DNA of 21,051 nucleotides from the IMG/VR virus record IMGVR_UViG_2579779002_000005. One strand, 5' to 3'. The notes under the pieces were generated by a model. It saw nothing but the letters and a program-made list of their open reading frames with translations, ran no database searches and was not told the origin of the DNA. Made by a program: the position numbers and the translations under genes. The number at the start of each line of letters is the position of its first letter. Within the stretch, counting starts at the first letter, position 1. Source of the stretch: a virus (Duplodnaviria; Heunggongvirae; Uroviricota; Caudoviricetes). This document shows positions 2,720 to 20,004 of this stretch, piece by piece.

Positions 2720-4576
2720 TTATGATGATGCTGGTGCATTTATCTCCAGCACCAGACTTTCTATCTCAACGCCATACGCTGCATTTTTGGTAATATCCGT
2801 CAGCGTCAGCGCATTCAGCCCCAGTGTCAGACTGTCTTTTATGACCTGGAATGCCGGGCCAGCCACTCCATTCAGTTTCGGAGTAACCGTGGCACTGCCG
2901 GCGGTGAACACCAGCTCCAGCGTCTGCCAGTCGTTACTGTAATTCCCGAACTCGCCCAACTTTGTGTTTCCTGCTTTCCTGTGATGCATCAGATTCAGTT
3001 TGCCGTCTGTGGTCTGGGTGAAGAACGACATCAGGAACGGGTTACCAGTCCCGGTCATCGCCACGACGTCAGGTAACGCTACATCGGTATACAGATAAAT
3101 TCCCAGACCGAACTGGTTGTTGGTCAGTGCGCCTGACAGTCGAAACTTACAGCTCAGTCTGCCACCCCGTGTCAGCAGGGAGACTGCGTCATCCACCGGA
3201 TGCATCAGGGACCAGGTTTTATTGCTCTGCTTGGTAACCTTAAACACACCATCTTCCAGCGCAACACTGCCGCCGGTGATGGTCCAGCCCTGCGCAGCAG
3301 CCTCTCCGGCTGTCGGCAGCAGGGAGACTGTACGAACGGATGTGTCACCATCAGACGGCCCCGATGGCGTGTCGCCGCCGGGCGAGGGTTTAATCTCCGG
3401 TGCGGTACCGCTGATGAAGGCGCTGGTTCGACCAACTGCGTTCAGAATAGCGGTTGCCAGGCGATCCGAAATAATGCCCCTGCGCGCCCATGAACTGAAA
3501 TGTGTCGGACGATTTGACGATACCCAATTACCATTACTACGGGATTGCGCGCCGTAATAACCTGCATCAGCAATATCCGGGTCTTCTGCCGGTAAGTTGG
3601 TGGGCGTGTTGTTGCCGTTACCGTCGGTCATGAACGGCACAAAGAAAACGTTGTCGCTCTCCCTGTTTTTGTACGCGCCGTAGACGGAGTCATACTGTGT
3701 GCCGTATGTGTTTTTCCAGTAATACGTCGTGTCGCCACAAATCCACGGTACAACTGCAGCACTGCCGCCATGGCACTGCGCCGCCAGCCCGGCAAGGTCA
3801 GCACGGAACTGCTGTACCATTGCAAGAAATGCTGCTGGCTGCTGGGCGTAACTGGCATTCGTCATATCGAATTCCCCCTGCATCCAGCATATCGCCAGCA
3901 AAACGTTTTTCGGGTTTTTCTGCAATGCTGCCTTCGTGCGGAAAAGCAGATCCTGATATAATGGTTTACCCACACCCCAGCGTGCCGAATCCTGGCTGGC
4001 CCCCGTGTCCGCACTGAATGTCCCCTCCGCGCCCTGGGTGAATGCCGAACCACCACGACAGCATGGTACCAGCAGGATCCCCGCATTATTAGGGATATAC
4101 GGAAGCAGTTTTTTGGCAATATGTAAGCCCTGTCCGACACAGCCGTACTGCCCTTTGCTCAGGTCAGCCCGGGGATGGTTAATCGTACTCATATCCTGAA
4201 CATCATGCAGACAATGGTCAGCAGGAATGATGTCGTTAAATACGCATACTTCACCACCGGGAGTCACTGTGTTACGACGGGCCAGTTGCTTAATGCGCGG
4301 ATGGGGCGCATCGTATGAATCCGGAAGCGGAAGCCCTTCACCGTAAGCCATGGCATTGGACTGCCCGGCCAGTACGATGACGTAGTACCACTCCGGCTCA
4401 GTTGCACCACTGACGACCACATCACCTTCTGCTGCAATCGCCTGCATCAGGGTATAAGGGGTTATGGCCACCGGACTACCAAACGGCTGCCAGCCCTCTT
4501 TCAGTTTATGTGTCAGCTTTTCCGCAAGATCTGACGGCGACGCCGCCCTGACAACATCATAGTGTTTAAATGCCAT
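2720..4576 (-). CDS. nanS-p: Prophage sialate O-acetylesterase (NanS-p-like, SGNH/SASA esterase domain)
   Basis: 618 aa with a GQSN nucleophile block (VIVLAGQSNAMAYGEG). Located between the tRNA cluster and the holin, as in Stx-type lambdoid phages. Confidence 0.75.
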   Translation of the reverse strand: MAFKHYDVVRAASPSDLAEKLTHKLKEGWQPFGSPVAITPYTLMQAIAAEGDVVVSGATEPEWYYVIVLAGQSNAMAYGEGLPLPDSYDAPHPRIKQLARRNTVTPGGEVCVFNDIIPADHCLHDVQDMSTINHPRADLSKGQYGCVGQGLHIAKKLLPYIPNNAGILLVPCCRGGSAFTQGAEGTFSADTGASQDSARWGVGKPLYQDLLFRTKAALQKNPKNVLLAICWMQGEFDMTNASYAQQPAAFLAMVQQFRADLAGLAAQCHGGSAAVVPWICGDTTYYWKNTYGTQYDSVYGAYKNRESDNVFFVPFMTDGNGNNTPTNLPAEDPDIADAGYYGAQSRSNGNWVSSNRPTHFSSWARRGIISDRLATAILNAVGRTSAFISGTAPEIKPSPGGDTPSGPSDGDTSVRTVSLLPTAGEAAAQGWTITGGSVALEDGVFKVTKQSNKTWSLMHPVDDAVSLLTRGGRLSCKFRLSGALTNNQFGLGIYLYTDVALPDVVAMTGTGNPFLMSFFTQTTDGKLNLMHHRKAGNTKLGEFGNYSNDWQTLELVFTAGSATVTPKLNGVAGPAFQVIKDSLTLGLNALTLTDITKNAAYGVEIESLVLEINAPASS

Positions 4577-4798: not shown

Positions 4799-4806
4799 GC
4801 CCACAA

Positions 4807-5044
4807 GAAAACCCCTCCGGAGAGGGGCTAAAGCCGCGTATCTGTATCATCATGCACATGGTGCCGGGTGCCTCCCGGTGAGTTCAGCCCGGTGCCACTA
4901 AACCCGCGTCATTCTCGTTTTGATAATCAGAGATTATACCGTCACCAGTCGCCCCTCCGCTCAGGGGGATTCACCATGCGAAATTTTTTTAACAAATGCC
5001 CAGTCTGACAGGCAACTGTCAACTTACTGAATTGTGAGCAACAT
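4807..5044. repeat. Copy 1 of an imperfect ~220-240 bp direct repeat (non-coding module)
   Basis: Shares with copy 2 the blocks cccctccggagaggggct, catggtgccgggtgcctcccggtga, gcccctccgc.cagggggattcaccatgc, ttttaacaaa and acagtcaac..ctgaattgtgag. Confidence 0.7.
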
Positions 5045-5292
5045 AGCATTTAACGGGGAACCTGTTTTCTGCAGTAAAAAGGCCCACCGGAGCGGATGGG
5101 CCTGGAAGGATAGCGGTCATGTGATGCCGGTTTCCCGGTAACTCAGCACCGGTATCTGAGTCAACGTTTTCTCTACTGGGTCATTTCCGATACGCCCTGC
5201 CTGCTGACAGGCTTTCATCACATCTGAAAATATAGCACCCTGACTGATACTGTAGTACCTAAGGTTCCAGAAACTGTGATGTATCCGGCACA

Positions 5293-5512
5293 GAAAAGCC
5301 CCTCCGGAGAGGGGCTGGAGAGTGGCGCTATGTGCCATTGCATGGTGCCGGGTGCCTCCCGGTGAATTCAGTACCAGCACCTGAATCCGCGATTATCCCA
5401 TATACCTACTCGCTGATTGCCCCTCCGCACAGGGGGATTCACCATGCCAGTTTCTTTTAACAAACTCCCCGCAAACCAGACAACAGTCAACCGCCTGAAT
5501 TGTGAGACATTT
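5293..5512. repeat. Copy 2 of the imperfect direct repeat
   Basis: Same conserved blocks as copy 1. On the minus strand its gcccctc tccg gaggggc hairpin is followed by TTTTCT, so it looks like a terminator. Confidence 0.7.
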
Positions 5513-5551: not shown

Positions 5552-5628
5552 TGGCGCGTTGTACTGGATTCGAACCAGTGACCGATTGCTTAGAAGGCAA
5601 TTGCTCTGTCCGGCTGAGCTAACAACGC
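5552..5628 (-). tRNA. tRNA-Arg (anticodon UCU)
   Basis: Minus-strand sequence folds as a cloverleaf: acceptor GCGTTGT/ACAACGC, D stem GCTC/GAGC, anticodon stem ATTGC/GCAAT with loop CTTCTAA, T arm ACTGG-TTCGAAT-CCAGT, encoded CCA. Confidence 0.85.
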
Positions 5629-5641
5629 AGGATACAGATAA

Positions 5642-5718
5642 TGGACCGCCTTCGGGGACCCGAACTCCGCGCAACCAGCTTCGAAGGCTGGCGCTCTTTC
5701 CTGATGAGCTAATGGCGG
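5642..5718 (-). tRNA. tRNA-Arg (anticodon UCG), slightly degenerate
   Basis: Cloverleaf with anticodon stem CCAGC/GCTGG and loop CTTCGAA. It has one acceptor mismatch (A6-A67), one T-stem mismatch and T-loop TTCGGGT (G at position 58). The anticodon loop is palindromic, so strand is assigned from the neighbouring tRNAs. Confidence 0.6.
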
Positions 5719-5725
5719 TATGTGA

Positions 5726-5801
5726 TGGTGGCCCTTGCTGGATTTGAACCAGCGACCTGGCGATTATGAGTCGCTCGCTCTCACCACTGAGCTAAAGGGC
5801 C
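5726..5801 (-). tRNA. tRNA-Ile2-like (anticodon CAU, ileX/ileZ-like; could be read as Met)
   Basis: Perfect acceptor GGCCCTT/AAGGGCC, D arm GCTC-AGTGGTGA-GAGC, anticodon loop CTCATAA, T arm GCTGG-TTCAAAT-CCAGC, CCA end. Closely resembles E. coli ileX as I recall it. Confidence 0.85.
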
Positions 5802-10420: not shown

Positions 10421-12685
10421 TTATACGGAAACTGGCACACGAGCAGGCAATGGATAGTGAGCCCAGTTATTAGCATTTAAAGCTCTTACGCCATCAGCAT
10501 AAACTTGTGTTTTTCCATCTAATGATTTTAAAGTTACTACAATAGTTACAGGTAAAGGCTCCATTAAGGCCGGTTCATTCGCTCTCAACGTTGTTTTAGC
10601 TTGAAGAGCCCAGTTACCCGAAGTAATTCCTTTATTAAATGCCTTGCGATGAATTTTTACTGGTGACCACTTTCCACCATGCTCAATTTGAGCTCTCTCA
10701 TATCCAGATTGACCGTTTTCTCCTTCCATAGGTACTTTTCCTTTTATAGTATTATTCTCAATTAAGCCAAAACTTAGCTCTACGTTCGCGCGAACATATT
10801 CACTGCCGGCATTAGGGTTCAGTGGTGGTGCATATGCAGCAGTAATTACAATCTCACCTTTAAATTTTCCATTTTGAATAAGTGCCGATGGTATGGGATA
10901 GTTTTCCTTTCTCCACCTCACCCCAGGAACCAAGAATGTTTGGAAAATCAGAGTAAACCTATCATCACTATCATATAAGGTCTCAATAACCTCATTAGGA
11001 ATTCCCGCTCCCAAATAGCGTCTTTCACTTGGCGAGTAATCAGGAGAAGATAATTGAGCGGAATGAATTAATAATGCTTTAATCAATGATGGTGAAACAT
11101 TAAAGTCTGAATTAGTGGCTATTCTCTGCCATGTATGCGCAGCTAAACTTGCCACAATTGGAGCAGCAAAACTAGTACCAAAATTAGAGCAAAGCCTATT
11201 ATCTGGCCCTACGACCTTTAAACTGCTTGCTCCTACATTCCAAGGTCTATGAACCCCACCGCCAGCATGGATTATATCTGGCTTTGGAGTAAATACAGGC
11301 CCAGGGCCACGACGAGTATATGGTGTCGGTGTTCCAATTTCACTTAAAGCATCATTAGCTTCCATATGAGAAACTGAACCAACTGTTAGTGCTCGGACTG
11401 ACTCTCCAGGAGAGGAAATTAAATCAGCACCTCCAAGCGGATCAGGATTTGGCCATGTACGTATAGGTTCATCTACATAATTACCTGCAGCAACTACAAA
11501 CAAAATACCAAATTTATCGCTGAGCCGATCTAACTCCATCGCAAAATCACTAAACATCTGCTCATTACATGGTCCGCCTCCCAAAGATAAATTCCAGACT
11601 TTTATATCTGGTCTTTTATTTACAGCATCTGCTAGCCTCAGAATTAAATCTGATATATAAGATCCATTTTCATCTAAAGCACAAACATCATGGATTTTAG
11701 ATTTTGTATCAGGAATCCATGGATGATTGTCATTTAAAAAATGAGCGCCTGATATCAATGAAGACACCATAGTCCCATGTTCATAACTCGTATCAGGAGG
11801 AATTACGTATGTTTCCCTACTCACTACCCAAGGAGTAATTGTTGCCGCGATGGGGCTTACCCCAGTGTCAAATACAGCAACAATGGGTAATTCTTCTGAT
11901 GGTACGGGAAAGCTATTTGTTTCAATGCCAACAGAATCACTTACACTAACCGGGAATGCTGAATATTTTGGTTCTGGAATTAACGTTCTTATACCCGGGT
12001 AATCAATGAGAATGTCTAATATATATCTATCATTTGGGGATAAATCCATTATCCTTAATAAGGGAAGACCACATTTTGGTCTAATCTCATCATATTTAAC
12101 TCCGTGTTGTTCTAATATAGAAATAACGTTTTCATAGTTGTTGTAAGTTGCATCTTCACCTGTGTACTCAAATAGTCGTACAAGGATGTTTGATGATTCA
12201 AACAAACCATCAGTGCCTCCTGGAACCTTCCTATTCTCATCCCAAGGTTCAATGCGCTCAATCGCGCTTAGATTAGCCAAAATCGCTTTAATATTCCGAT
12301 GTAAAATGACTGACTCTAATACGTCAAAACAGCCGGCATGAGCAGCAACCAACATTTCATCTATTTTGGCATGACCGGCATTTTGCAATCCAGCCTCTTG
12401 AGCAATTTTGTTCGGCCTATGCGTTTTGGCTATTCCCTGGTCTCTTAATTTGAAAACCAAAGTACCCAAGCTTCCAGGGTACTCTGAAAGTTTGGATTCT
12501 AAATAATGTTTACTGGTTGTTAAATTTCTTACTAGCCCTTGTCTATATTCGGCTGTTACATCAACCAATACCTTTGCCCCACCGCCAGCGTTTACTATTG
12601 CACCCAAGTCACTACTGGAAAAAGGGATTCTTAACATTGGGTTTGTAACTTTTGCGTTACTAAACTGTGTACCCCTTCTGCTCAT
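10421..12685 (-). CDS. Subtilisin-like serine protease (peptidase S8) with large N- and C-terminal extensions; probably cytoplasmic
   Basis: 754 aa. Catalytic residues in D-H-S order: VAVFD273TG, YEH303GT, oxyanion AAGN402Y, GTS505FAAP. No N-terminal signal peptide is apparent. The ORF overlaps the upstream ATPase gene by 26 bp. Confidence 0.85.
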   Translation of the reverse strand: MSRRGTQFSNAKVTNPMLRIPFSSSDLGAIVNAGGGAKVLVDVTAEYRQGLVRNLTTSKHYLESKLSEYPGSLGTLVFKLRDQGIAKTHRPNKIAQEAGLQNAGHAKIDEMLVAAHAGCFDVLESVILHRNIKAILANLSAIERIEPWDENRKVPGGTDGLFESSNILVRLFEYTGEDATYNNYENVISILEQHGVKYDEIRPKCGLPLLRIMDLSPNDRYILDILIDYPGIRTLIPEPKYSAFPVSVSDSVGIETNSFPVPSEELPIVAVFDTGVSPIAATITPWVVSRETYVIPPDTSYEHGTMVSSLISGAHFLNDNHPWIPDTKSKIHDVCALDENGSYISDLILRLADAVNKRPDIKVWNLSLGGGPCNEQMFSDFAMELDRLSDKFGILFVVAAGNYVDEPIRTWPNPDPLGGADLISSPGESVRALTVGSVSHMEANDALSEIGTPTPYTRRGPGPVFTPKPDIIHAGGGVHRPWNVGASSLKVVGPDNRLCSNFGTSFAAPIVASLAAHTWQRIATNSDFNVSPSLIKALLIHSAQLSSPDYSPSERRYLGAGIPNEVIETLYDSDDRFTLIFQTFLVPGVRWRKENYPIPSALIQNGKFKGEIVITAAYAPPLNPNAGSEYVRANVELSFGLIENNTIKGKVPMEGENGQSGYERAQIEHGGKWSPVKIHRKAFNKGITSGNWALQAKTTLRANEPALMEPLPVTIVVTLKSLDGKTQVYADGVRALNANNWAHYPLPARVPVSV

Positions 12686-13814
12686 ATGCTCCTGACTCCT
12701 TCAGAATGTTTGAAATTACTCTTGATGTAAGTTTGTACAAATTAGCAAGAACTCTGATAGAAAATAATTTTTTATCTTTAGAACGTAACCAACGAATTTC
12801 ATCTTCGTAAGTGCTTAAATTTACACCTTCCATAAGCGATTGCGCAAGATACAAACGCCTATACAATTTATGGTGATTTATCACACTTGCACCTTCAATA
12901 ACTGCATCCCTACGTGCATCCAAGCTCACCTGTTCAATTATTGCTCCGGATAATCCCTCCGATTTTCTTGATAAATCACTTAAATCTAGATCGCTACATA
13001 TCATATTCTTTAAACGATTTTTCCAAATTAACTCTCTCTGATGTATGTCAGGCAGAGGCATTGGAATTCTGAAGCTAAATCGCCTCCAGATTGCAGGATC
13101 CAGAAGTTGCTCATGGTTAGTTGAGGCAATAATTACCGTATCCTCTGATGCCGCATCCATATTCTGCAATAGTGAAATGACAACTCGCTGAAGCTCACCT
13201 ATATCTCTCTCATTACCTCTTGCTCCAGCTAAAGCATCAAATTCGTCTAAAAAAAGCACTGATGGCCTCTGCATTACATAATCGAAAACCTGTCTAAGAT
13301 TTTTGCTGGTTTGTCCCAATAAACTACTAATCAAAGTATCGCAACGCACTGTAAGAAGTGGAAAATCTAAGCGGGTAGCGATGTACTTAGATAACATAGT
13401 CTTACCTGTTCCTGGCTTTCCATACACGAGCATACGACTCGGCAATGCTGCATCAGCTTTAACAAACTCATCATAACGTTGAACATTAGTGATAAACTCT
13501 TCAACACGGGTACTGATTGCTGCAGGCAGAAAAATCTCTGAACTGTCTAATTTAGGATAACTGACATCAACAGTGTTGAGTCGACTATCAATATCTACCG
13601 GTAATGAGCCCAGAGATATCCCACCTCCAGCCCTTTGAGCTCCTGCCAACGCCTGGGGAGCTCTAAGCAACCTTTCTCTTATCATTCTGGCTTGCTTGAC
13701 CTCCCCTTTTTGTTCGAGCTTATCTGCCAGCAACCCAGCATAATTACTAGCCATCGAAGCATTTGCCTTTGTTGCACCTTCAATGATTTTTAACACTTCT
13801 GATAAATAATCCAT
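12660..13814 (-). CDS. AAA+ ATPase (classical AAA clade)
   Basis: 384 aa. Walker A GKPGTGKT (K138), Walker B VLFLDEFD, sensor-1 IIASTNH, arginine-finger region DPAIWRRF. GGGAG ribosome-binding site upstream of the ATG. Confidence 0.85.
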   Translation of the reverse strand: MDYLSEVLKIIEGATKANASMASNYAGLLADKLEQKGEVKQARMIRERLLRAPQALAGAQRAGGGISLGSLPVDIDSRLNTVDVSYPKLDSSEIFLPAAISTRVEEFITNVQRYDEFVKADAALPSRMLVYGKPGTGKTMLSKYIATRLDFPLLTVRCDTLISSLLGQTSKNLRQVFDYVMQRPSVLFLDEFDALAGARGNERDIGELQRVVISLLQNMDAASEDTVIIASTNHEQLLDPAIWRRFSFRIPMPLPDIHQRELIWKNRLKNMICSDLDLSDLSRKSEGLSGAIIEQVSLDARRDAVIEGASVINHHKLYRRLYLAQSLMEGVNLSTYEDEIRWLRSKDKKLFSIRVLANLYKLTSRVISNILKESGAYEQKGYTV

Positions 13815-15238: not shown

Positions 15239-15985
15239 TTACTTCGCAATTCCTGGCTGGACGACATTCGGACGCCAGCTCTCCCAGTTAAAATTCACCC
15301 ATAGCCCGCCGTTCATGGTCATGCGATCCATAATCCGCTCGCCGAGCAATGTTTTCATGGCCTCATAGTTCAGGTTTGTCAGCATCCCCACGCTGCGCAT
15401 CGACGCTGTCCGGCGATCAACAATCTGGTGCAGTACCACCTGCTCGTTTTTCGTCTCGCGCTGAATGCCAATTTCATCAAGAACCAGCAGATCCACTTCG
15501 CACAGTTCCCGCAAAAATTTTTCGCCTGACTGCCCATCGTCATAGCTGGCGTGGAGGGCACTCATAACATCAGCCACGGTAACCACAATCACTGTCTGAC
15601 CGTCTTTCAGCAGGCGATTCCCGATAGCTGCTGCTAAGTGGTTCTTCCCGGTACCAGGTTTTCCGCTAAACGCGAAATTTGTGCATCCGGTCATCAGTTC
15701 ATCAGCGATAGATTTCGCCTGGCTCAACGCGTATCGCTGACCGTCGTTCTGCACCTGGTAATTCGCAAACGAGCATTTACGGTGCAACGGCTGGATGCCT
15801 GAGCGATTCAGAATTTTTTCCACCCGCAACTGGCGATTCAGGCGGTTGATCTCCTCGCTACGTTTCTGGCCTTCAGCAAGTTGCCACTCGTGCCACTCCG
15901 CTACCGTTCTGAATGGGGCGGTTACATGTGGCGGAGCCAGTCTTCGGATACGTTCAAGAACGCCGCCTGCCGCAATGTTTTTCAT
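15239..15985 (-). CDS. DnaC-like replicative helicase loader (AAA+)
   Basis: 248 aa. Walker [18 protein letters not shown], Walker [10 protein letters not shown]. Immediately downstream of the replication initiator. Confidence 0.85.
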
Positions 15986-15991
15986 GACACG

Positions 15992-16969
15992 TCACCCCCT
16001 GAATCCCGGCGGTATTTCAGTGTCCGGTTCAGAAATGTGATTCACGCAACGCTGCGCAGGCAAACGCCCCAGGCGGATAACCAGTTCATCCCATTTTTCC
16101 CGGAGTTTTGCCGGACTCATGATGTTTTTTACCCAGAACGAATCCCGCTGGAGACGCCCAAACATTTCACAAATTTGTCTGTGAGTTCTGCCATCCAGCA
16201 TCCGCATTGTGCGAACGTCATTGGCCCATGCTGTCCAGTTGGGTTCTTTCGGTCTAGTGATCTCGCCATCATAGCTGGCCGCCTGCTCGTAAAGACTCAC
16301 GATTCGTCCCCAGATCCACTGTGCGCACACCAAATCTTCCTGACTTCCCCACTGGCGTTTTTTCGCACTGAACACAACCGCGTCAGGGTGTCGGGTTAAA
16401 AAATCCTGTTCAGCCGTCTGCGGGTCCGGTTGCGAAGCGTCCGGACAAGAAGATCTTTTATCTGACGGATCAGGTTTTAATACTGACGGATCGGGGTCAA
16501 TCATCGGCCCCCTAATCGGCAGTTTTTTATCAACAGTTGATCCATCAAAATTTGACGGGTCAACCGTTGAGGGGTCAATATTTGACGGGTCAACTGTTAA
16601 CGGGTCATTTTTTGCCGGGCTAATTTTTCTTTTCGGTTTATATGACTCACGCGCCGCCGCCGCAGCTGCTTCGAGTTTTTCCACATTAAGCCGATAGATA
16701 TTGCTTACATTACGCCCACCGACCTTACGCTCTTCCTTCGTCAGCCAGCCCTCTTTCGCCAGTTCTGCAATAGCCGATTTCACTGTGGATTCACTTCTTG
16801 CACCGATCTGACGCCGGATAGTTTCAATGGCAGGCCATGACACGCCCTCGTCATTGCTGTAGTCTGCAAGACGGGCCATAACCGCCACCCTGGATAAGAT
16901 CATGCCGGTGAAGGCGCACCCTTCCCAGACAAGACCATGAAGCTTGCTGCTCATAAACCCCCCGAACAC
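15992..16969 (-). CDS. Replication initiation protein (O-like / YdaU-like) containing the internal iteron origin
   Basis: N-terminal HTH-like segment (WPAIETIRRQIGARSESTVKSAIAELAKEGWL), a central repetitive D/P/S-rich linker encoded by DNA iterons, and position upstream of the DnaC-like gene. The first codon appears to be GTG, with an ATG at 16954. Confidence 0.65.
   Translation of the reverse strand: MFGGFMSSKLHGLVWEGCAFTGMILSRVAVMARLADYSNDEGVSWPAIETIRRQIGARSESTVKSAIAELAKEGWLTKEERKVGGRNVSNIYRLNVEKLEAAAAAARESYKPKRKISPAKNDPLTVDPSNIDPSTVDPSNFDGSTVDKKLPIRGPMIDPDPSVLKPDPSDKRSSCPDASQPDPQTAEQDFLTRHPDAVVFSAKKRQWGSQEDLVCAQWIWGRIVSLYEQAASYDGEITRPKEPNWTAWANDVRTMRMLDGRTHRQICEMFGRLQRDSFWVKNIMSPAKLREKWDELVIRLGRLPAQRCVNHISEPDTEIPPGFRG
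16463..16610. repeat. Iteron array (putative replication origin) inside the initiator gene
   Basis: Four to six copies of TGACGG(A/G)TCA-like repeats (16463, 16484, 16553, 16584, plus variants at 16568 and 16598), followed by an AT-rich stretch at 16621..16650. Confidence 0.6.
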
Positions 16970-16976
16970 CGTGCTT

Positions 16977-17402
16977 TTAGTGCATCACCACAGCATTCCC
17001 TGCCGGGCCGCCGCGATTCATCTGGTCATACAAAACAACCGCTGACGCAACAAAATCATCGACATCCTTCCCCAGCCGATCCCTCCGTTCGACGATCTCA
17101 CGGTAATATTCAGAACTGTGGCTGCGCATACGGGCCACCAGCAAAGGCGGCATCGCCTTTTCGATCGCCGGTAACAGAGCCTGCATTTTTTCAACAGCAT
17201 CAGGGGTGTCTTTATCCAGCCAACGGAAAATTTTCTGGGTATTACGGGCCAGGGCTTCCGGATGGCTGTCGTCATACAGTTCCGGGAACGTCATTCCCAG
17301 CTCGAAATACGCTTTGGTAATTTTCGCAGCCGGCACTTTTTCGCCGTCCGGATGCGCCCAGACATTCATCGCCATGCGGATGTGTTCATGCTTGATTTTC
17401 AT
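16977..17402 (-). CDS. cII-position early protein (YdaT-like)
   Basis: 141-aa ORF overlapping the Cro-like gene by 17 bp, in the gene order found in the Rac prophage (racR / ydaS-ydaT-ydaU-ydaV). Assigned by synteny, not motif. Confidence 0.45.
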   Translation of the reverse strand: MKIKHEHIRMAMNVWAHPDGEKVPAAKITKAYFELGMTFPELYDDSHPEALARNTQKIFRWLDKDTPDAVEKMQALLPAIEKAMPPLLVARMRSHSSEYYREIVERRDRLGKDVDDFVASAVVLYDQMNRGGPAGNAVVMH

Positions 17403-17667
17403 GAATCAAGCTCCTAGAAAGTGGTTGTGTTAACGTTTTGGTATCTTCCAGCTCGGGCCAAATATTCATCCAATCAAAAGGCCTTAGTTGCTGACGTGTA
17501 ACTTCACCATTACTGGCTCGCTCAATAAGGACACATAACGATGCCCCTAACACTTGACCTTTACTCAATGCCTTTCTTAGATAACCGATGCTGGTACCAC
17601 ACTCGCATGCAAACATACGCTGTTCATCTGACGAAAGAGAATTGAGAAATATTCTTAATTCTTCCAT
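17386..17667 (-). CDS. Cro-like HTH regulator (YdaS-like)
   Basis: 93 aa with AAGGAG Shine-Dalgarno 5 nt upstream; HTH-like segment GTSIGYLRKALSKGQ; divergent from the repressor gene across an operator-bearing intergenic region. Confidence 0.6.
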   Translation of the reverse strand: MEELRIFLNSLSSDEQRMFACECGTSIGYLRKALSKGQVLGASLCVLIERASNGEVTRQQLRPFDWMNIWPELEDTKTLTQPLSRSLIHENQA

Positions 17668-17767
17668 AGCTACTCCTTAGTAAACACAGCAAAGAATACC
17701 CACAGGTAAACAAAAGTCAATACCCACAGGTTGTTTACCTTGCGGTAATCGCATCTATTATTTACCT
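17668..17767. promoter_or_regulatory. Divergent-promoter/operator region between repressor and Cro-like gene (OR-like)
   Basis: Two direct copies of TACCCACAGG(T) at 17697..17706 and 17721..17730, plus a gtaaaca/tgtttac inverted repeat. Confidence 0.55.
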
Positions 17768-18187
17768 ATGGACAAATATGAATTTAGACGACAGCAACTC
17801 ATCAAAATTCGTGATGAGAAATGCGATGGTAAAGCGGTTAACGTGGCCAGAAAGATCGGGCGCGAGCCTTCTTATGTATCAAGAATGTTGTACCCAGAGG
17901 GGAAAAAGGGAAAAAAACGGATCGCTGATGATATGGTGGAGATTATCGAAGAGTCCTTTGGGTTACCCCGGGGATGGATGGATGGTATCGTTTCATCATC
18001 AACGAACACAGCCTCCAGTTATGAAACAAGGGTTCTAACGCCACGACAACGTATTTTTTTAGATCTCTTAGACGAACTGCCAGAAAGTGAAGCGGATAAA
18101 TTATTAAAAACTCTTGAAGAGAAAAAACAGTATTACAATATGATCTACGAAGAAATCCGTAAAAAGAAAGCACAAAACGCATCATAG
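17768..18187 (+). CDS. Prophage repressor, short non-cleavable type (RacR-like)
   Basis: 139 aa with an N-terminal HTH (GKAVNVARKIGREPSYVSRMLYPEG) and no S24 peptidase domain. Divergent from the Cro-like gene. Confidence 0.65.
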   Translation: MDKYEFRRQQLIKIRDEKCDGKAVNVARKIGREPSYVSRMLYPEGKKGKKRIADDMVEIIEESFGLPRGWMDGIVSSSTNTASSYETRVLTPRQRIFLDLLDELPESEADKLLKTLEEKKQYYNMIYEEIRKKKAQNAS

Positions 18188-18229
18188 CTCACCAAACAAC
18201 TAGTCACCAGTTAAGACACCGCAAAAATT

Positions 18230-18266
18230 TACCCATGGGTATTTACTTTTTAAATACCTATGGGTA
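18230..18266. promoter_or_regulatory. OL-like operator pair downstream of the repressor gene
   Basis: Perfect 12-bp palindrome TACCCATGGGTA at 18230..18241 and the variant TACCTATGGGTA at 18255..18266. They share the TACC...GGTA half-sites with the sites at 17697 and 17721. Confidence 0.55.
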
Positions 18267-18452
18267 TCCTTCTTTTCATACCAACCCACCCCGCCCCACA
18301 GAATGCAGGGCAATACTTCGAGTTACCAGGCAGTGGTCAGGGGTTAAGTAGCCAGCCCGAGGCGTAAGAACATGACGGCAGGGTTCAACTTTAATAACTA
18401 TGCAGCAGGTTTTTGTTCCGCTACCCCGGCGTTAAGGGGAAATGAGGTCAAC

Positions 18453-18605
18453 ATGGATATGCTCAATCTTGGCAACAACGAATCTCTGGTATGTGGCGTG
18501 TTCCCCAACCAGGACGGCACGTTTACCGCGATGACGTATACCAGAAGCAAAACGTTTAAAACTGAAGCTGGCGCGCGTCGCTGGTTAACCAGAAACACTG
18601 ACTGA
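18453..18605 (+). CDS. Small 50-aa protein in the first position after the OL-like sites
   Basis: Start MDMLNLGNNESL with a GAGG Shine-Dalgarno 7 nt upstream. The ORF track lists a longer 77-aa form starting at 18372. Occupies the position of the small ydaG/ydaF genes in Rac (from memory). Confidence 0.4.
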   Translation: MDMLNLGNNESLVCGVFPNQDGTFTAMTYTRSKTFKTEAGARRWLTRNTD

Positions 18606-19018
18606 TGAGGTTGACGATGGAATTTAAAGATTTACCAGTACCATTCCAGGAAATGGCATCGAATGTGGTTCGCTCTCAACTGGCGACTCTTGACCTGAGT
18701 ACCGTAGAAAAAGAAACCATCGATACTATATCCGGTAACGTGCGTCGTGCCTTTATAGGTCTGTATGAAGAGAAGCGCCTATTCGGCGGACAGAATTCGC
18801 CTGAAAACAAGAATCAAGCAAATGATGAGAAGCTGAAACACATTATCGCCTTACTTTTGGAAGACGCAAAACGTCTACAGCAACTGGAACCAAATGCAGG
18901 CACAGAGGCCCGCATTTGGATTGCCATGAAATCACTCAAATGTGAAAGCAGTGATTATTTCAAAACAACAATTAAAACTACTCAACTTTCGGGAGAGCTA
19001 CTGAAGAAATTGCCATAA
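18605..19018 (+). CDS. Hypothetical soluble 133-137 aa protein
   Basis: The ATG at 18605 overlaps the upstream stop (TGATG); an alternative ATG at 18617 has a GAGG Shine-Dalgarno. No recognisable motifs. Confidence 0.45.
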   Translation: MRLTMEFKDLPVPFQEMASNVVRSQLATLDLSTVEKETIDTISGNVRRAFIGLYEEKRLFGGQNSPENKNQANDEKLKHIIALLLEDAKRLQQLEPNAGTEARIWIAMKSLKCESSDYFKTTIKTTQLSGELLKKLP

Positions 19019-19256
19019 GAGCATGGTCTTTCTCTTGTTCTGCAAGATGAGCATTAATACCTGGTATGGTTTTTTCAAATTTATCTATCTGTTGAATAAC
19101 AACTTCGCGGTATACGTTTGTTTTTGTACCACCAAGCGCAGCCGTTAATGCAGAAAGCATATTTAGTATCATATCAGTGCGATATGAAAGAATCCTGATA
19201 GCTTCATCTTGTTTTTCAATAATAGATTGCAGGGCCTCAATTTGCTTTTTATCCAT
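18978..19256 (-). CDS. Hypothetical 92-aa protein, convergent with and overlapping the preceding gene
   Basis: Start MDKKQIEALQ with a strong AGGAGG Shine-Dalgarno 5 nt upstream; heptad-like hydrophobic spacing suggests a coiled coil. Its 3' end overlaps 18605..19018 by about 40 bp. Confidence 0.45.
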   Translation of the reverse strand: MDKKQIEALQSIIEKQDEAIRILSYRTDMILNMLSALTAALGGTKTNVYREVVIQQIDKFEKTIPGINAHLAEQEKDHALMAISSVALPKVE

Positions 19257-19295
19257 TTCACCCTCCTGAGGGTTGGTAATTAAGGAGTTCTCCAC

Positions 19296-19700
19296 GGGTC
19301 AGGTGGAGTGCGTGCGCCGGACACGGGTGAACATCCGGCACTGACAGTTTACTGAAAGGATATGTCCCTGAAAAGTCAGGGCATAACGCGAAAGCGCACG
19401 GCGAAATTGGTCTCTCTGTACGGTGTCGTTAAATTTAGTTCGACCGTGCGCTTCCGGTTGTGGCAATCCGCGAAATGGTGCGGCGGTAAGTATGGCGGGG
19501 TTATTCCTTCCCCCGTTGAGGACACCGGGTTGTCAGGTTGACCATACGCTTAAGTGACAACCCCGCTGCAACGCCCTCTGTTATCAATTTTCTGGTGACG
19601 TTTGGCGGTATCAGTTTTACTCCGTGACTGCTCTGCCGCCCTTTTTAAAGTGAATTTTGTGATGTGGTGAATGCGGCTGAGCGCACGCGGAACAGTTAAA
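19296..19700. other. GC-rich structured non-coding region with nested hairpins and repeated GCGTGCGC / GCGCACG motifs in alternating orientation
   Basis: Hairpins ctccac..gtggag (about 19284..19308), ccgga..tccgg (19317..19340) and ccctga-aaag-tcaggg (19366..19381). CGTGCGC occurs at 19311 and 19445, and its complement GCGCACG at 19394 and 19681. The only long ORF here (19617..20222, minus) looks spurious. Confidence 0.3.
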
Positions 19701-19815
19701 ACCAAAAACAGTGTTATGGGTGGATTCTCTGTATCCGGCGTTAATTGTTAACTGGTTAACGTCACCTGGAGGCACCAGGCACCGCATCACAAAATTCATT
19801 GTTGAGGACGCGATA

Positions 19816-20004
19816 ATGGAAACGTTATTACCAAACGTTAATACGTCTGAAGGTTGTTTTGAAATTGGTGTCACTATCAGTAACCCAGTATTTACTGAAG
19901 ATGCCATTAACAAGAGAAAACACGAACGGGAGCTATTAAATAAAATATGCATTCTTTCAATGCTGGCCCGTTTACGTCCGATACAAAAAGGATGCTGGCA
20001 ATGA
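19816..20004 (+). CDS. Hypothetical 62-aa early protein
   Basis: Start METLLPNV with a GAGGA Shine-Dalgarno about 8 nt upstream; its stop overlaps the next start (ATGA). Confidence 0.4.
   Translation: METLLPNVNTSEGCFEIGVTISNPVFTEDAINKRKHERELLNKICILSMLARLRPIQKGCWQ

Follow-up and report, generated by a model that had tools for sequence, protein, structure and literature searches.

A probable lambdoid immunity switch with TACC-N4-GGTA operators and a repressor lacking an S24 domain in an E. coli prophage

The control region described here is very probably the immunity switch of a lambdoid E. coli prophage with TACC-N4-GGTA specificity, and the 139-aa protein encoded within it the repressor of that switch. 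The kind of switch is well understood; this one is a new, uncharacterised member with a previously undescribed specificity. The window (the whole stretch of DNA analysed, 21,051 bases) contains five 12-bp TACC-N4-GGTA sites in the control region, three of them intergenic and two downstream of the repressor gene (Table 1), and the comparative evidence, drawn from sequence, is very strong that these are operators in an OR/OL layout, accompanied by an HTH repressor without S24 domain and by a Cro-like neighbour. If the predictions hold, the region provides a testable operator map that comprises five sites and three promoters, with a leaderless mRNA for the repressor, for a switch that controls the toxic division inhibitors DicB and DicF.

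Operator sites and promoter-like elements

Exact matches to TACCNNNNGGTA numbered four in the window and all fell inside 17697-18266 (570 bp); dinucleotide-preserving shuffles gave an expectation of 0.17 +/- 0.40, and a count of four was reached in 0 of 100 shuffles. The first-pass annotation had listed four sites, two of them intergenic, at 17697, 17721, 18230 and 18255; each is present where it was placed, and the site at 18230 (TACCCATGGGTA) is indeed a perfect palindrome, but the exact intergenic site at 17736 had been overlooked and brings the total to five. The 18230/18255 pair does lie just downstream of the repressor gene, as had been said, although its role is better read as that of sites on a PL-type promoter than of a gene end, and the likeness seen in that annotation to OR and OL of lambdoid phages is backed by the layout conserved in 42 species (below). 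The extended operator consensus is wTACC-YRYR-GGTAw. OR1 and OR2 are 24 bp apart, as in lambda, and OL2 and OL1 25 bp; the OR2-OR3 spacing of 15 bp is unlike that of lambda, and the half-site centres, about 8-9 bp apart, are tighter than in lambda or 434 operators, and both of these features count against the main reading. A possible sixth site at 17763 (TACCTATGGACA), over the start codon, was rejected: it has the left half-site only and is not conserved in relatives.

The divergent repressor and cro genes, recognised as ORFs, flank the three-site region, which overlaps two divergent promoters found by promoter scan. The string TCAATACC (reverse complement of the PR -35 plus the left half-site of OR2) is conserved across species. 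The predicted PRM start is the A of the repressor ATG at 17768, and the centre of OR2 lies at -41.5 relative to it. No Shine-Dalgarno sequence was seen upstream of this ATG, and among 46 related loci a -10-like hexamer ends 6-7 nt upstream of the ATG in 31, with no enrichment at other offsets; the repressor mRNA is probably leaderless.

The second operator set (18230/18255) lies on the -35/-10-like hexamers of PL, and the same architecture was found in 35 related loci. The PL hexamers of the window, matching the consensus at 8 of 12 positions, are weak and fall under the promoter-scan threshold, which counts against the main reading; relatives have TTGAC and TAnnnT at the equivalent positions relative to the paired PL sites, and the layout site / -35 / site / -10 is conserved in them at both PR and PL. 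A literature search on the motif string and on mEp043 operators found nothing, and the searchable literature held no binding experiment for any member of the TACC-N4-GGTA specificity group, which likewise counts against the main reading.

Table 1. Features of the control region and its two arms (positions of the window).
Feature	Position	Strand	Sequence or elements	Basis or remark
YdaT-type CII analogue, 141 aa	16977..17402	-		Pfam YdaT_toxin PF06254, E 3e-10; intact ORF
Cro-like gene, 93 aa	17386..17667	-		Distant YdaS family; intact ORF
YdaT operator (OM-type), predicted	17392..17409		TTGATTTTCATGAATCAA	cro/ydaT junction; PRE-like promoter site by analogy
PR-like promoter	17693..17720	-	-35 TTGACT (17715-17720), 16-nt spacer, -10 TATTCT (17693-17698)	Promoter scan
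OR1	17697..17708		TACCCACAGGTA	Overlaps PR -10
OR2	17721..17732		TACCCACAGGTT	One mismatch, right half-site weak; abuts PR -35
PRM-like promoter	17734..17761	+	-35 TTTACC (17734-17739), 16-nt spacer, -10 TATTAT (17756-17761)	Promoter scan
OR3	17736..17747		TACCTTGCGGTA	Exact site, between PRM -35 and -10
Repressor, 139 aa	17768..18187	+		Intact ORF; N-terminal HTH, linker, DicA-like hairpin
OL2	18230..18241		TACCCATGGGTA	Perfect palindrome; directly upstream of PL -35
PL-like promoter	18242..18270	+	-35 TTTACT (18242-18247), 17-nt spacer, -10 TATCCT (18265-18270)	Read by eye
OL1	18255..18266		TACCTATGGGTA	Overlaps PL -10
ydfA-like, first gene of leftward (PL) operon	18372..18605	+		Pfam DUF1391, E 5e-28
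DicF sRNA	19590..19641	+		Rfam RF00039, 76.7 bits; PL operon
dicB, cell-division inhibitor	19815..20003	+		ORF; RefSeq annotation of 99.7% identical E2348/69 locus; PL operon

Co-inheritance of sites, repressor N-domain and cro

Related loci were gathered by profile search of genome contigs with tight alignment, giving a comparison set of one locus from each of 42 species (Enterobacterales, Aeromonas, Neisseria, Burkholderiales, Xanthomonadales and others). In these species, which share the repressor N-domain, the motif recurs at offsets -72, -47 and -32 and as a downstream pair 25-26 bp apart; 116 exact motifs were counted against 3.3 expected. Either the stretch between -90 and -25 or the region over 400 bp downstream contains 115 of them, and in the downstream group of 55 motifs 51 are paired. 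An exact site equivalent to OR1 (-70 to -76) is present in 34 of the 42 loci and one equivalent to OR3 in 24 (33 with at most one mismatch), and at the OR2 position almost every relative has a degenerate site (exact in 1 of 42, at most one mismatch in 26). Loci of Salmonella, Pantoea, Klebsiella and Yersinia and the functional coliphage mEp043 have the N-domain, the motif and the upstream offsets in common, along with the 25-26-bp motif pair ahead of the leftward operon; their repressors mostly have S24 C-domains, that of Yersinia being short, and a profile search identified the S24-type relatives as true lambda-CI-type proteins. Judged from these comparisons the conservation of the TACC-N4-GGTA specificity extends from E. 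coli as far as Xanthomonas and Neisseria. Phages Tritos and vB_EcoS-666R9 have the same C-domain and downstream flank with a different N-domain, and different repeats exactly at the OR and OL positions of the window.

The profile search of viral contigs returned only copies with a 100%-identical N-domain, and these were used for population variation, not for diversity. Across 80 near-identical copies most variable columns belong either to the central N4 of a site or to a spacer between sites; no variation was seen in either quartet of OR1 or in the left one of OR2, and of all TACC/GGTA quartets only position 9 of OR3 changes recurrently, in about 20 of the 80. Of 5,426 complete E. coli genomes, 821 (about 15%), EPEC E2348/69 among them, contain at least 80% of the 1.4-kb module.

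The repressor, the Cro-like protein and the two arms

The repressor, named "hypothetical protein" in RefSeq, consists of an HTH domain (about residues 1-72), a flexible linker (about 73-90) and a helical hairpin (92-138). In its AlphaFold model (pLDDT 89) helices 23-30 and 34-40 make up a helix-turn-helix within a four-helix N-domain, and a fold search returned Xre/lambda-cI-type DNA-binding domains; the best structural match to the whole model, a weak one, was SPC32H Rep (PDB 5d50; Foldseek E 1.7e-3, TMq 0.46). The protein matches phrog_5736 (E 6e-70). It has no Pfam match at all, Peptidase_S24 included, the C-terminus being a two-helix hairpin in the model, and scans against Pfam, NCBIfam and PADLOC gave no domain call beyond weak similarity to the C-terminus of DicA (NCBIfam DicA model, E 2e-5). 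Direct comparison aligned the C-terminal ~46 residues with DicA at 33% identity (E 2e-7). A sequence search of the PDB gave nothing significant, and a profile search matched only the S24 part of the repressor's relatives. The N-domain is 64-82% identical to the N-domain of S24-type cI repressors, mEp043 cI included; it showed no HTH_3 match and no alignment to the N-domain of DicA. By homology the repressor is thus a two-part protein, an mEp043 cI-type HTH domain joined to a DicA-like helical C-domain. Lacking an S24 domain it would not undergo RecA-induced self-cleavage, and the loss of RecA cleavage is well supported.

The Cro-like gene has a Shine-Dalgarno sequence (AAGGAG) at 17673-17678, and its product matches phrog_35 (E 5e-23) and is 61-73% identical to the divergent neighbours of repressor homologues in Salmonella, Pantoea, Yersinia and mEp043. 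A cro homologue was found in 37 of 47 related loci, at 43-73% identity in most and 36% in one Neisseria locus. Against the YdaS_toxin model (PF15943) the protein scored 25.8 bits, below the cut-off of 30, and it aligns with K-12 YdaS at 54% identity over 28 residues only; on these scores it is only a weak YdaS relative. Homology to DicC was considered, and sequence comparison showed none. The gene that follows encodes YdaT, with 40.8 bits for PF06254 (cut-off 21), 139 of 140 residues identical to CP-933P YdaT (PDB 8bt1), and 31% full-length identity to K-12 YdaT. The predicted YdaT operator is the sole exact match to TTGATTN6AATCAA in the window; this motif and its position at the cro/ydaT junction were footprinted in CP-933P (PMC9986795). 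The right arm is, from its sequence matches, CP-933P-type. The two protein features in the first-pass annotation, a short HTH repressor without peptidase domain and a divergent Cro-like gene, agree with the above, and its term Rac-type applies to the right arm through YdaT, but not to the repressor (BLASTP against K-12 RacR, best E 2.3) and only faintly to the Cro-like protein.

The left arm, with its DUF1391/ydfA-like gene, DicF and dicB, is by gene content Qin/dic-type. OL2 begins about 42-43 bp past the repressor stop codon, and from 18271 on the DNA matches the flank in phage vB_EcoS-666R9 at about 97% identity.

Alternative readings, proposed regulation and known switches

It is highly improbable that the Cro-like (YdaS-family) protein is the sole reader of the sites, with the 139-aa protein acting elsewhere or being no DNA-binding repressor. 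Since cro adjoins the sites in most loci, the co-occurrence fits Cro as well as the repressor, and because both genes usually travel with the sites, comparison does not fully separate the binding of the one from that of the other. However, cro, the PR -35 and OR2 are all gone from six Klebsiella loci that nevertheless retain the repressor, OR1, the OL sites and the site at the OR3 position (exact in 3 of the 6), which argues for binding by the repressor and not by Cro alone. Loss of the motif also tracks changes in the repressor's predicted recognition helix, the motif being missing in three loci where this helix is altered (L116, L132 and L136); moreover, in lambda-CI-type S24 repressors, mEp043 cI among them, this N-domain is the part that binds DNA, and in characterised switches the operators are common to both proteins (PMC8630535). 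The 18230/18255 pair taken separately could be primarily an intrinsic terminator stem ending the repressor transcript: a terminator scan flagged 18230-18266 followed by TCCTTCTTTT, the RNA folds as a 16-bp hairpin (-22.2 kcal/mol, z -6.3), and the segment lies about 43 bp past the repressor stop codon. This is very unlikely as its main function, for two similar adjacent palindromes pair with each other automatically, and in relatives other genes separate the pair from the repressor stop, 0.7-2.5 kb away, while its place is always directly on -35/-10-like hexamers of the leftward operon, in many cases with no T-run; in the phages sharing C-domain and flank, exactly this segment is exchanged along with the N-domain. 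A secondary terminator role of the OL pair is possible in the lineage of the window.

Many E. coli prophages of comparable type are cryptic, and the module might be a decayed remnant in which sites and genes are inherited and the switch no longer works. The weak PL hexamers, the occurrence of copies whose repressor gene is frameshifted in its A-runs (P0010-P0019) and the mutated position 9 of OR3 would fit such decay. We consider it very unlikely, given that the repressor, cro and ydaT ORFs are intact, that the OR1 quartets and the OR2 left quartet stay invariant while neighbouring bases vary, and that the module is carried by so many of the complete E. coli genomes; it also guards the toxic dicB and dicF, which in the case of Qin must be repressed for growth (PMC10448788).

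For a working immunity switch, we infer from the arrangement the following regulation. The N-terminal HTH domain would read the TACC/GGTA half-sites as a dimer, and the DicA-related C-terminal hairpin would most likely provide dimer and tetramer contacts. Dimers bound cooperatively to OR1 and to the intrinsically weak OR2 would cover the -10 and -35 of PR, turning off the Cro-like gene, ydaT and the replication genes. Lambda CI activates PRM from the corresponding OR2 position, and OR2 at -41.5 from the predicted PRM start would allow the same activation here, with occupancy of OR3 at high repressor level giving negative autoregulation of PRM. Dimers on 18230 and 18255 would bracket the PL -35 and overlap the PL -10, silencing the ydfA-like/dicF/dicB/exo/xis/int operon. 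The Cro-like protein probably acts on the same sites in the opposite order of preference, and YdaT at 17392-17409 probably drives a PRE-like promoter for establishing repression.

Derepression would most likely come about via an antirepressor, or by stochastic or stress-driven flipping of the switch. Induction by a non-RecA route is a reasonable supposition from analogy: DicA/DicC/Rem provides a precedent for induction through an antirepressor (PMC10448788), and CP-933P PaaR2/YdaS/YdaT, with a leaderless repressor mRNA, OR and OL and no peptidase, is not mitomycin-inducible (PMC8630535). A scan of the window for LexA boxes (CTGT-N8-ACAG) gave none that was exact, and those with one mismatch were about as frequent as expected by chance. 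An antirepressor route such as that of DicA/Rem might operate; the ten large ORFs of the window examined by Pfam scan or tblastn included no gene like Ant, Rha or Rem, and K-12 Rem as tblastn query matched neither the window nor the 37-kb E2348/69 locus better than at E 0.58. These negative results likewise count against the main reading.

The switch resembles that of lambda in the divergent repressor and cro genes, the three operators over back-to-back promoters, OR2 near -42 from PRM, the (predicted) leaderless repressor mRNA, the second operator set on a leftward promoter past the repressor gene, and a CII-type activator gene after cro. It differs in having 12-bp rather than 17-bp sites and two OL sites rather than three, a repressor without the S24/RecA-cleavage domain, YdaT as the CII analogue, and a PL operon that leads to ydfA-like/dicF/dicB; it has no N or rex genes. 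The CP-933P switch of E. coli O157:H7 is alike in its nearly identical YdaT with the exact operator at the cro/ydaT junction (PMC9986795), and in a repressor without peptidase motif, the leaderless mRNA (predicted in the window) and the OR and OL logic (PMC8630535). Its operator consensus, however, is GTTTAGTAA-type (PMC8630535) and that of the window TACC-N4-GGTA, and therefore the immunity specificities differ; the window also lacks the paaA2-parE2 pair after the repressor, with only ~42 bp from stop codon to OL2. With Qin DicA/DicC/dicBF the window shares the related repressor C-terminus and a short, non-cleavable repressor guarding a ydfA-dicF-dicB operon from a promoter just past the repressor gene, whereas the N-terminal DNA-binding domain is unrelated to the HTH_3 of DicA, the Cro-like protein is no DicC homologue, and a homologue of the Qin antirepressor Rem (PMC10448788) is absent from the window and from the E2348/69 prophage copy. 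Rac of K-12 has the same gene order (repressor, then divergent ydaS-ydaT-replication genes), a YdaT alike over its full length and a short repressor without S24, but RacR has no detectable similarity to the repressor, the YdaS similarity is limited as described, and the left arm is different. Rep/Ant of Salmonella phage SPC32H and the Gifsy systems also have non-cleavable two-domain repressors, inactivated by antirepressors; SPC32H Rep, although the best structural match, matches weakly and shows no similarity in sequence, and the window yielded no antirepressor.

Another close relation is to mEp043, whose repressor N-domain is 65% and cro 73% identical, and which has a three-site OR and two-site OL with the same motif, offsets and spacing. 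N-domain, cro and operator geometry being in common, the window and mEp043 would form one immunity specificity group, and resident prophages and free phages (mEp043, for example) are predicted to be cross-immune. The repressor of mEp043 and many S24-type repressors of Salmonella, Klebsiella, Pantoea and Edwardsiella prophages have a lambda-CI-type S24 C-domain and should be SOS-inducible, whereas that of the window has the DicA-like helical C-domain. Because the same DNA-binding domain, cro and operators occur with a cleavable or a non-cleavable C-domain, these phages offer a natural system for a change of induction signal without a change of immunity. Lambdoid immunities are known for diversifying. 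We offer tentatively, as a possibility that we would not favour, that the cro/operator/N-domain cassette is one ancient specificity, nearly fixed in operator sequence and geometry across beta- and gamma-proteobacterial phages, whose repressor repeatedly swaps its C-terminal "input" domain (S24 SOS sensor, DicA-like helical domain, or others), the E. coli version being a natural rewiring. The N-domain family itself comprises 709 clusters (50% identity) that match at E <= 0.001; it is without a Pfam model, the S24 domain was present in only 33 of 133 representatives, and Pfam HTH models match few of the 133, possibly through other domains. The family could be defined together with its DNA motif.

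Operator-like sites and predicted promoters of the switch region

The window is part of an E. coli lambdoid prophage; several E. coli chromosomes were 100% identical to a 1.4-kb probe around the switch, the prophage adjoining ompW in EPEC E2348/69 was 99.7% identical to it, and at least 80% of the probe was found in 821 of 5,426 complete genomes. The first-pass annotation had placed four operator-like sites around a short repressor gene. All four were present at those positions, and its list had left out an exact site (OR3), giving three intergenic sites (OR1, OR2, OR3) and two downstream of the gene (OL2, OL1). The motif, TACC and GGTA quartets around four central bases (TACC-N4-GGTA; TACCNNNNGGTA), had four exact occurrences in 21 kb, all within 17697-18266, against 0.17 expected, and none of 100 shuffles reached four; OR2 has one mismatch.

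Features of the immunity region and neighboring genes (promoters are predicted)
Feature	Position	Strand	Detail
STnc100 pair and tRNA genes	4799-5008, 5286-5476, 5555-5801	-	
IetA/IetS	10421-13814	-	384 aa / 754 aa
DnaC-like	15239-15985	-	
Replication-initiator-like	15992-16969	-	
YdaT-type protein	16977-17402	-	
Cro-like protein	17386-17667	-	93 aa
YdaT operator match	17392-17409		TTGATTTTCATGAATCAA
PR-like, -35	17720-17715	-	TTGACT, spacer 16 nt (consensus scan)
PR-like, -10	end 17693	-	TATTCT
OR1	17697		exact
OR2	17721		TACCCACAGGTT
PRM-like, -35	17734	+	TTTACC, spacer 16 nt (consensus scan)
OR3	17736		TACCTTGCGGTA, exact
PRM-like, -10	end 17761	+	TATTAT
Repressor	17768-18187	+	139 aa
A5 and A7 runs	17901-17918		GGGAAAAAGGGAAAAAAACGG
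OL hairpin	18222-18282		16 bp
OL2	18230		exact
PL-like, -35-like	18242-18247		TTTACT
OL1	18255		exact
PL-like, -10-like	18265-18270		TATCCT
DUF1391/ydfA-like gene	18372-18605	+	
105-aa ORF	18978-19295	-	
DicF sRNA	19590-19641	+	Rfam 76.7 bits
dicB	19815-20003	+	

A consensus scan of 17500-18500 returned exactly two promoter-like sites, one for the repressor (PRM) and one reading leftward into cro (PR). The PR -10 is overlapped by OR1 and its -35 is abutted by OR2, and OR3 lies between the PRM -35 and -10. Since the PRM -10 ends six bases 5' of the repressor ATG and no Shine-Dalgarno sequence precedes that ATG, a leaderless repressor mRNA is predicted, like the PRM transcript of lambda cI. The intergenic site centers fall at -65.5, -41.5 and -26.5 relative to the predicted PRM start; lambda CI at OR2 is centered near -42. 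The downstream pair flanks the -35-like hexamer and overlaps the -10-like hexamer of a candidate PL, the promoter of the ydfA-like/dicF/dicB operon. These hexamers match consensus at 8 of 12 positions, under the scan threshold, and the PL assignment therefore rests on comparison of relatives. Across species PR and PL were built alike: an operator, a TTGAC arising from its last bases, and a second operator (24-26 bp from the first) whose final TA starts the -10. OR2 was weak in all relatives because its right half-site is degenerate, as would be expected for a site filled cooperatively from OR1.

The switch would control two cell-division inhibitors, since DicF and dicB are both found downstream of the PL-like promoter. 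The 105-aa ORF is convergent with a 137-aa gene of the PL operon and overlaps its end; it matches phrog_18692 (unknown function), with a weak RelB-like match (E 0.015).

Composition of the repressor

The repressor has a helix-turn-helix (HTH) and no S24 domain, as first annotated. No Pfam family was found for the 139-aa protein, which matches PHROG 5736 'transcriptional regulator' (E 6e-70) and is labeled a hypothetical protein in RefSeq. Over its first 75-90 residues the protein shares 64-82% identity with the N-termini of Peptidase_S24 (LexA-family) prophage repressors of 221-242 aa from Salmonella, Edwardsiella, Yersinia, Klebsiella and Pantoea, whose C-domains match the lambda CI C-terminal domain (E 7e-18); coliphage mEp043, which is functional, has a cI that is 65% identical in this stretch. 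Residues 89-134 resemble the C-terminal end of the Qin prophage repressor DicA (33% identity, E 2e-7), and the NCBIfam DicA model also matches there. The AlphaFold model (pLDDT 89) has three parts: a four-helix N-domain with the HTH at 23-30 and 34-40, a disordered linker (residues 77-85 below pLDDT 50) and a C-terminal two-helix hairpin (92-103 and 106-138). In Foldseek the model weakly matched Rep of Salmonella phage SPC32H (5d50), a non-cleavable repressor, along with Xre, controller-protein and lambda-cI N-terminal domains. Relatives of the N-domain form a large family fused to several C-termini (709 clusters at 50% identity, E <= 0.001); of 133 representatives, only 33 carried S24.

The conserved KKGKK loop is encoded by the A5 and A7 runs. 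Among database proteins of 135-136 aa (P0010-P0019) there are several frameshift variants, which start at ATG 17778 in another frame and rejoin at KKRIADD, losing the HTH and keeping the C-domain. They may reflect sequencing error, or may be genuine slippage variants that have dominant-negative potential.

Operator motif across relatives and the probable binding protein

Exact sites stood at -72 and -32 from the repressor ATG in the Salmonella, Pantoea, Klebsiella and Yersinia loci and mEp043, with a degenerate site 24-25 bp past the first and a site pair 25-26 bp apart before the leftward operon. Thus where the N-domain is in common and the C-domain and flanks differ, the motif is unchanged. 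A breadth scan, limited to a single genome for each species, yielded 42 loci from Enterobacterales, Aeromonas, Neisseria, Burkholderiales, Xanthomonadales, Nitrosomonas and others. These loci contained 116 exact sites, where their length predicts 3.3; 115 of these fell in the interval -90 to -25 or beyond 400 bp downstream, and 51 of 55 downstream exact sites were paired at 24-27 bp. The OR1 position was exact in 34/42 loci (37 within one mismatch), OR3 in 24 (33) and OR2 in 1 (26), and the extended consensus was wTACC-YRYR-GGTAw. The most notable result is that operator sequence and geometry are rigid across beta- and gamma-proteobacteria while the repressor C-domain is exchanged.

In phages Tritos and vB_EcoS-666R9 the 139-aa CI proteins differ in the N-domain and have a C-domain about 75-80% similar. 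In this comparison the window DNA is about 97% identical from 18271 onward, and the OL segment and entire OR/N-domain segment are unalignable, with GTAC-type repeats there instead; with C-domain and downstream flank in common and the N-domain different, the repeats change. The motif was also absent from the three loci with an altered predicted recognition helix, two from Advenella (HPASISHMLY and HPATISHLLL instead of EPSYVSRMLY) and one from Nitrosomonas (QSYVNRIFY). The Advenella loci (L132, L136) carry a CATACCGC...GCGGTATG palindrome about 30-60 bp 5' of the repressor ATG, in which the quartets stand 12 bp apart and TACC-N4-GGTA is absent. This hints at a change in half-site spacing, not half-site sequence. 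S24-type relatives have a longer inverted repeat upstream of the OL pair, at a distance of about 20-30 bp (about 3885-3915, 3255-3285 and 3550-3578 in loci L002, L004 and L012). This repeat, TTACCTGAAA...TCAGGTAA, has the same quartets with about 12 bp between them; it was absent from the window and may represent a third, differently spaced OL element.

The sites might instead be bound by Cro alone. The divergent Cro-like gene is as first annotated, with homologues in 37 of 47 related loci and 61-73% identity to its counterparts in the Salmonella, Pantoea and Yersinia loci and mEp043. However, six Klebsiella loci that lost cro, OR2 and the PR -35 keep the repressor, OR1, the OL sites and the OR3-position site (exact in 3/6), which favors the repressor as a binder of the sites and makes binding by Cro alone unlikely. 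That the module has decayed and is non-functional is likewise unlikely; among 80 IMG/VR copies whose N-domain is 100% identical, the columns that varied within the 100-bp OR region fell mostly in the central N4 and the spacers between sites, the OR1 quartets and OR2 left quartet were invariant, and one recurrent quartet exception was seen (a G-to-A change at OR3 position 9, in about 20/80). Possibly the OL pair serves in this lineage as terminator of the repressor transcript, in a secondary role: the operators with the bases between them fold as RNA into a strong hairpin (-22.2 kcal/mol, z -6.3), and a T-rich tract, UCCUUCUUUU, comes after it. But two similar palindromes pair with each other automatically, and in relatives the site pair travels with PL, not with the repressor gene end.

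Proposed switch, induction and mosaic composition

With the repressor as binder, dimers on OR1 + OR2 and OL1 + OL2 would shut PR and PL, occupied OR2 would stimulate the leaderless PRM, and OR3 would mediate autorepression; Cro on the same sites would flip the switch, and YdaT would act in establishment from a PRE-like promoter. As the S24 domain is absent, RecA-stimulated self-cleavage cannot inactivate the repressor. No LexA box, Rem homologue or Ant/Rha-type gene was found in the window. There are three precedents. PaaR2 of CP-933P, without a peptidase motif, gives no mitomycin response (PMC8630535). The antirepressor Rem inactivates DicA, which can also flip stochastically or on exposure to urea or heat (PMC10448788); GfoR and GfhR, the Gifsy repressors, are cited there as uncleaved in the SOS response and removed by LexA-controlled antirepressors.

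The region is of the classical lambdoid immunity kind. The best description is of a mosaic with four components: an mEp043-type specificity cassette (cro, operators and repressor N-domain), a DicA-type repressor C-domain, a CP-933P-type right arm and a Qin-type left arm. The 'Rac-type' label held in that a YdaT-type gene is present; the cro analogue is only a remote YdaS relative, and a RacR module was rejected, the 139-aa protein showing no similarity to RacR. The YdaT protein is identical at 139/140 residues to the crystallized CP-933P protein (PDB 8bt1), whose footprinted operator, TTGATTN6AATCAA, lies at the cro/ydaT junction (PMC9986795); the window has it exactly once, likewise across the cro stop/ydaT start overlap. 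No description of the operator motif or of the mEp043 operators was found in the searchable literature, and with the RefSeq label this makes the member new and the kind of system known.

The early genes carry an inserted IetA (AAA ATPase)/IetS (subtilase) anti-phage defense pair (PADLOC, E 9e-143 and 6e-300), which in the E2348/69 prophage copy is apparently replaced by three unrelated hypothetical genes around the same region. In the prophage late region two tandem copies of the sRNA family STnc100 (161 and 136 bits) lie beside three tRNA genes.
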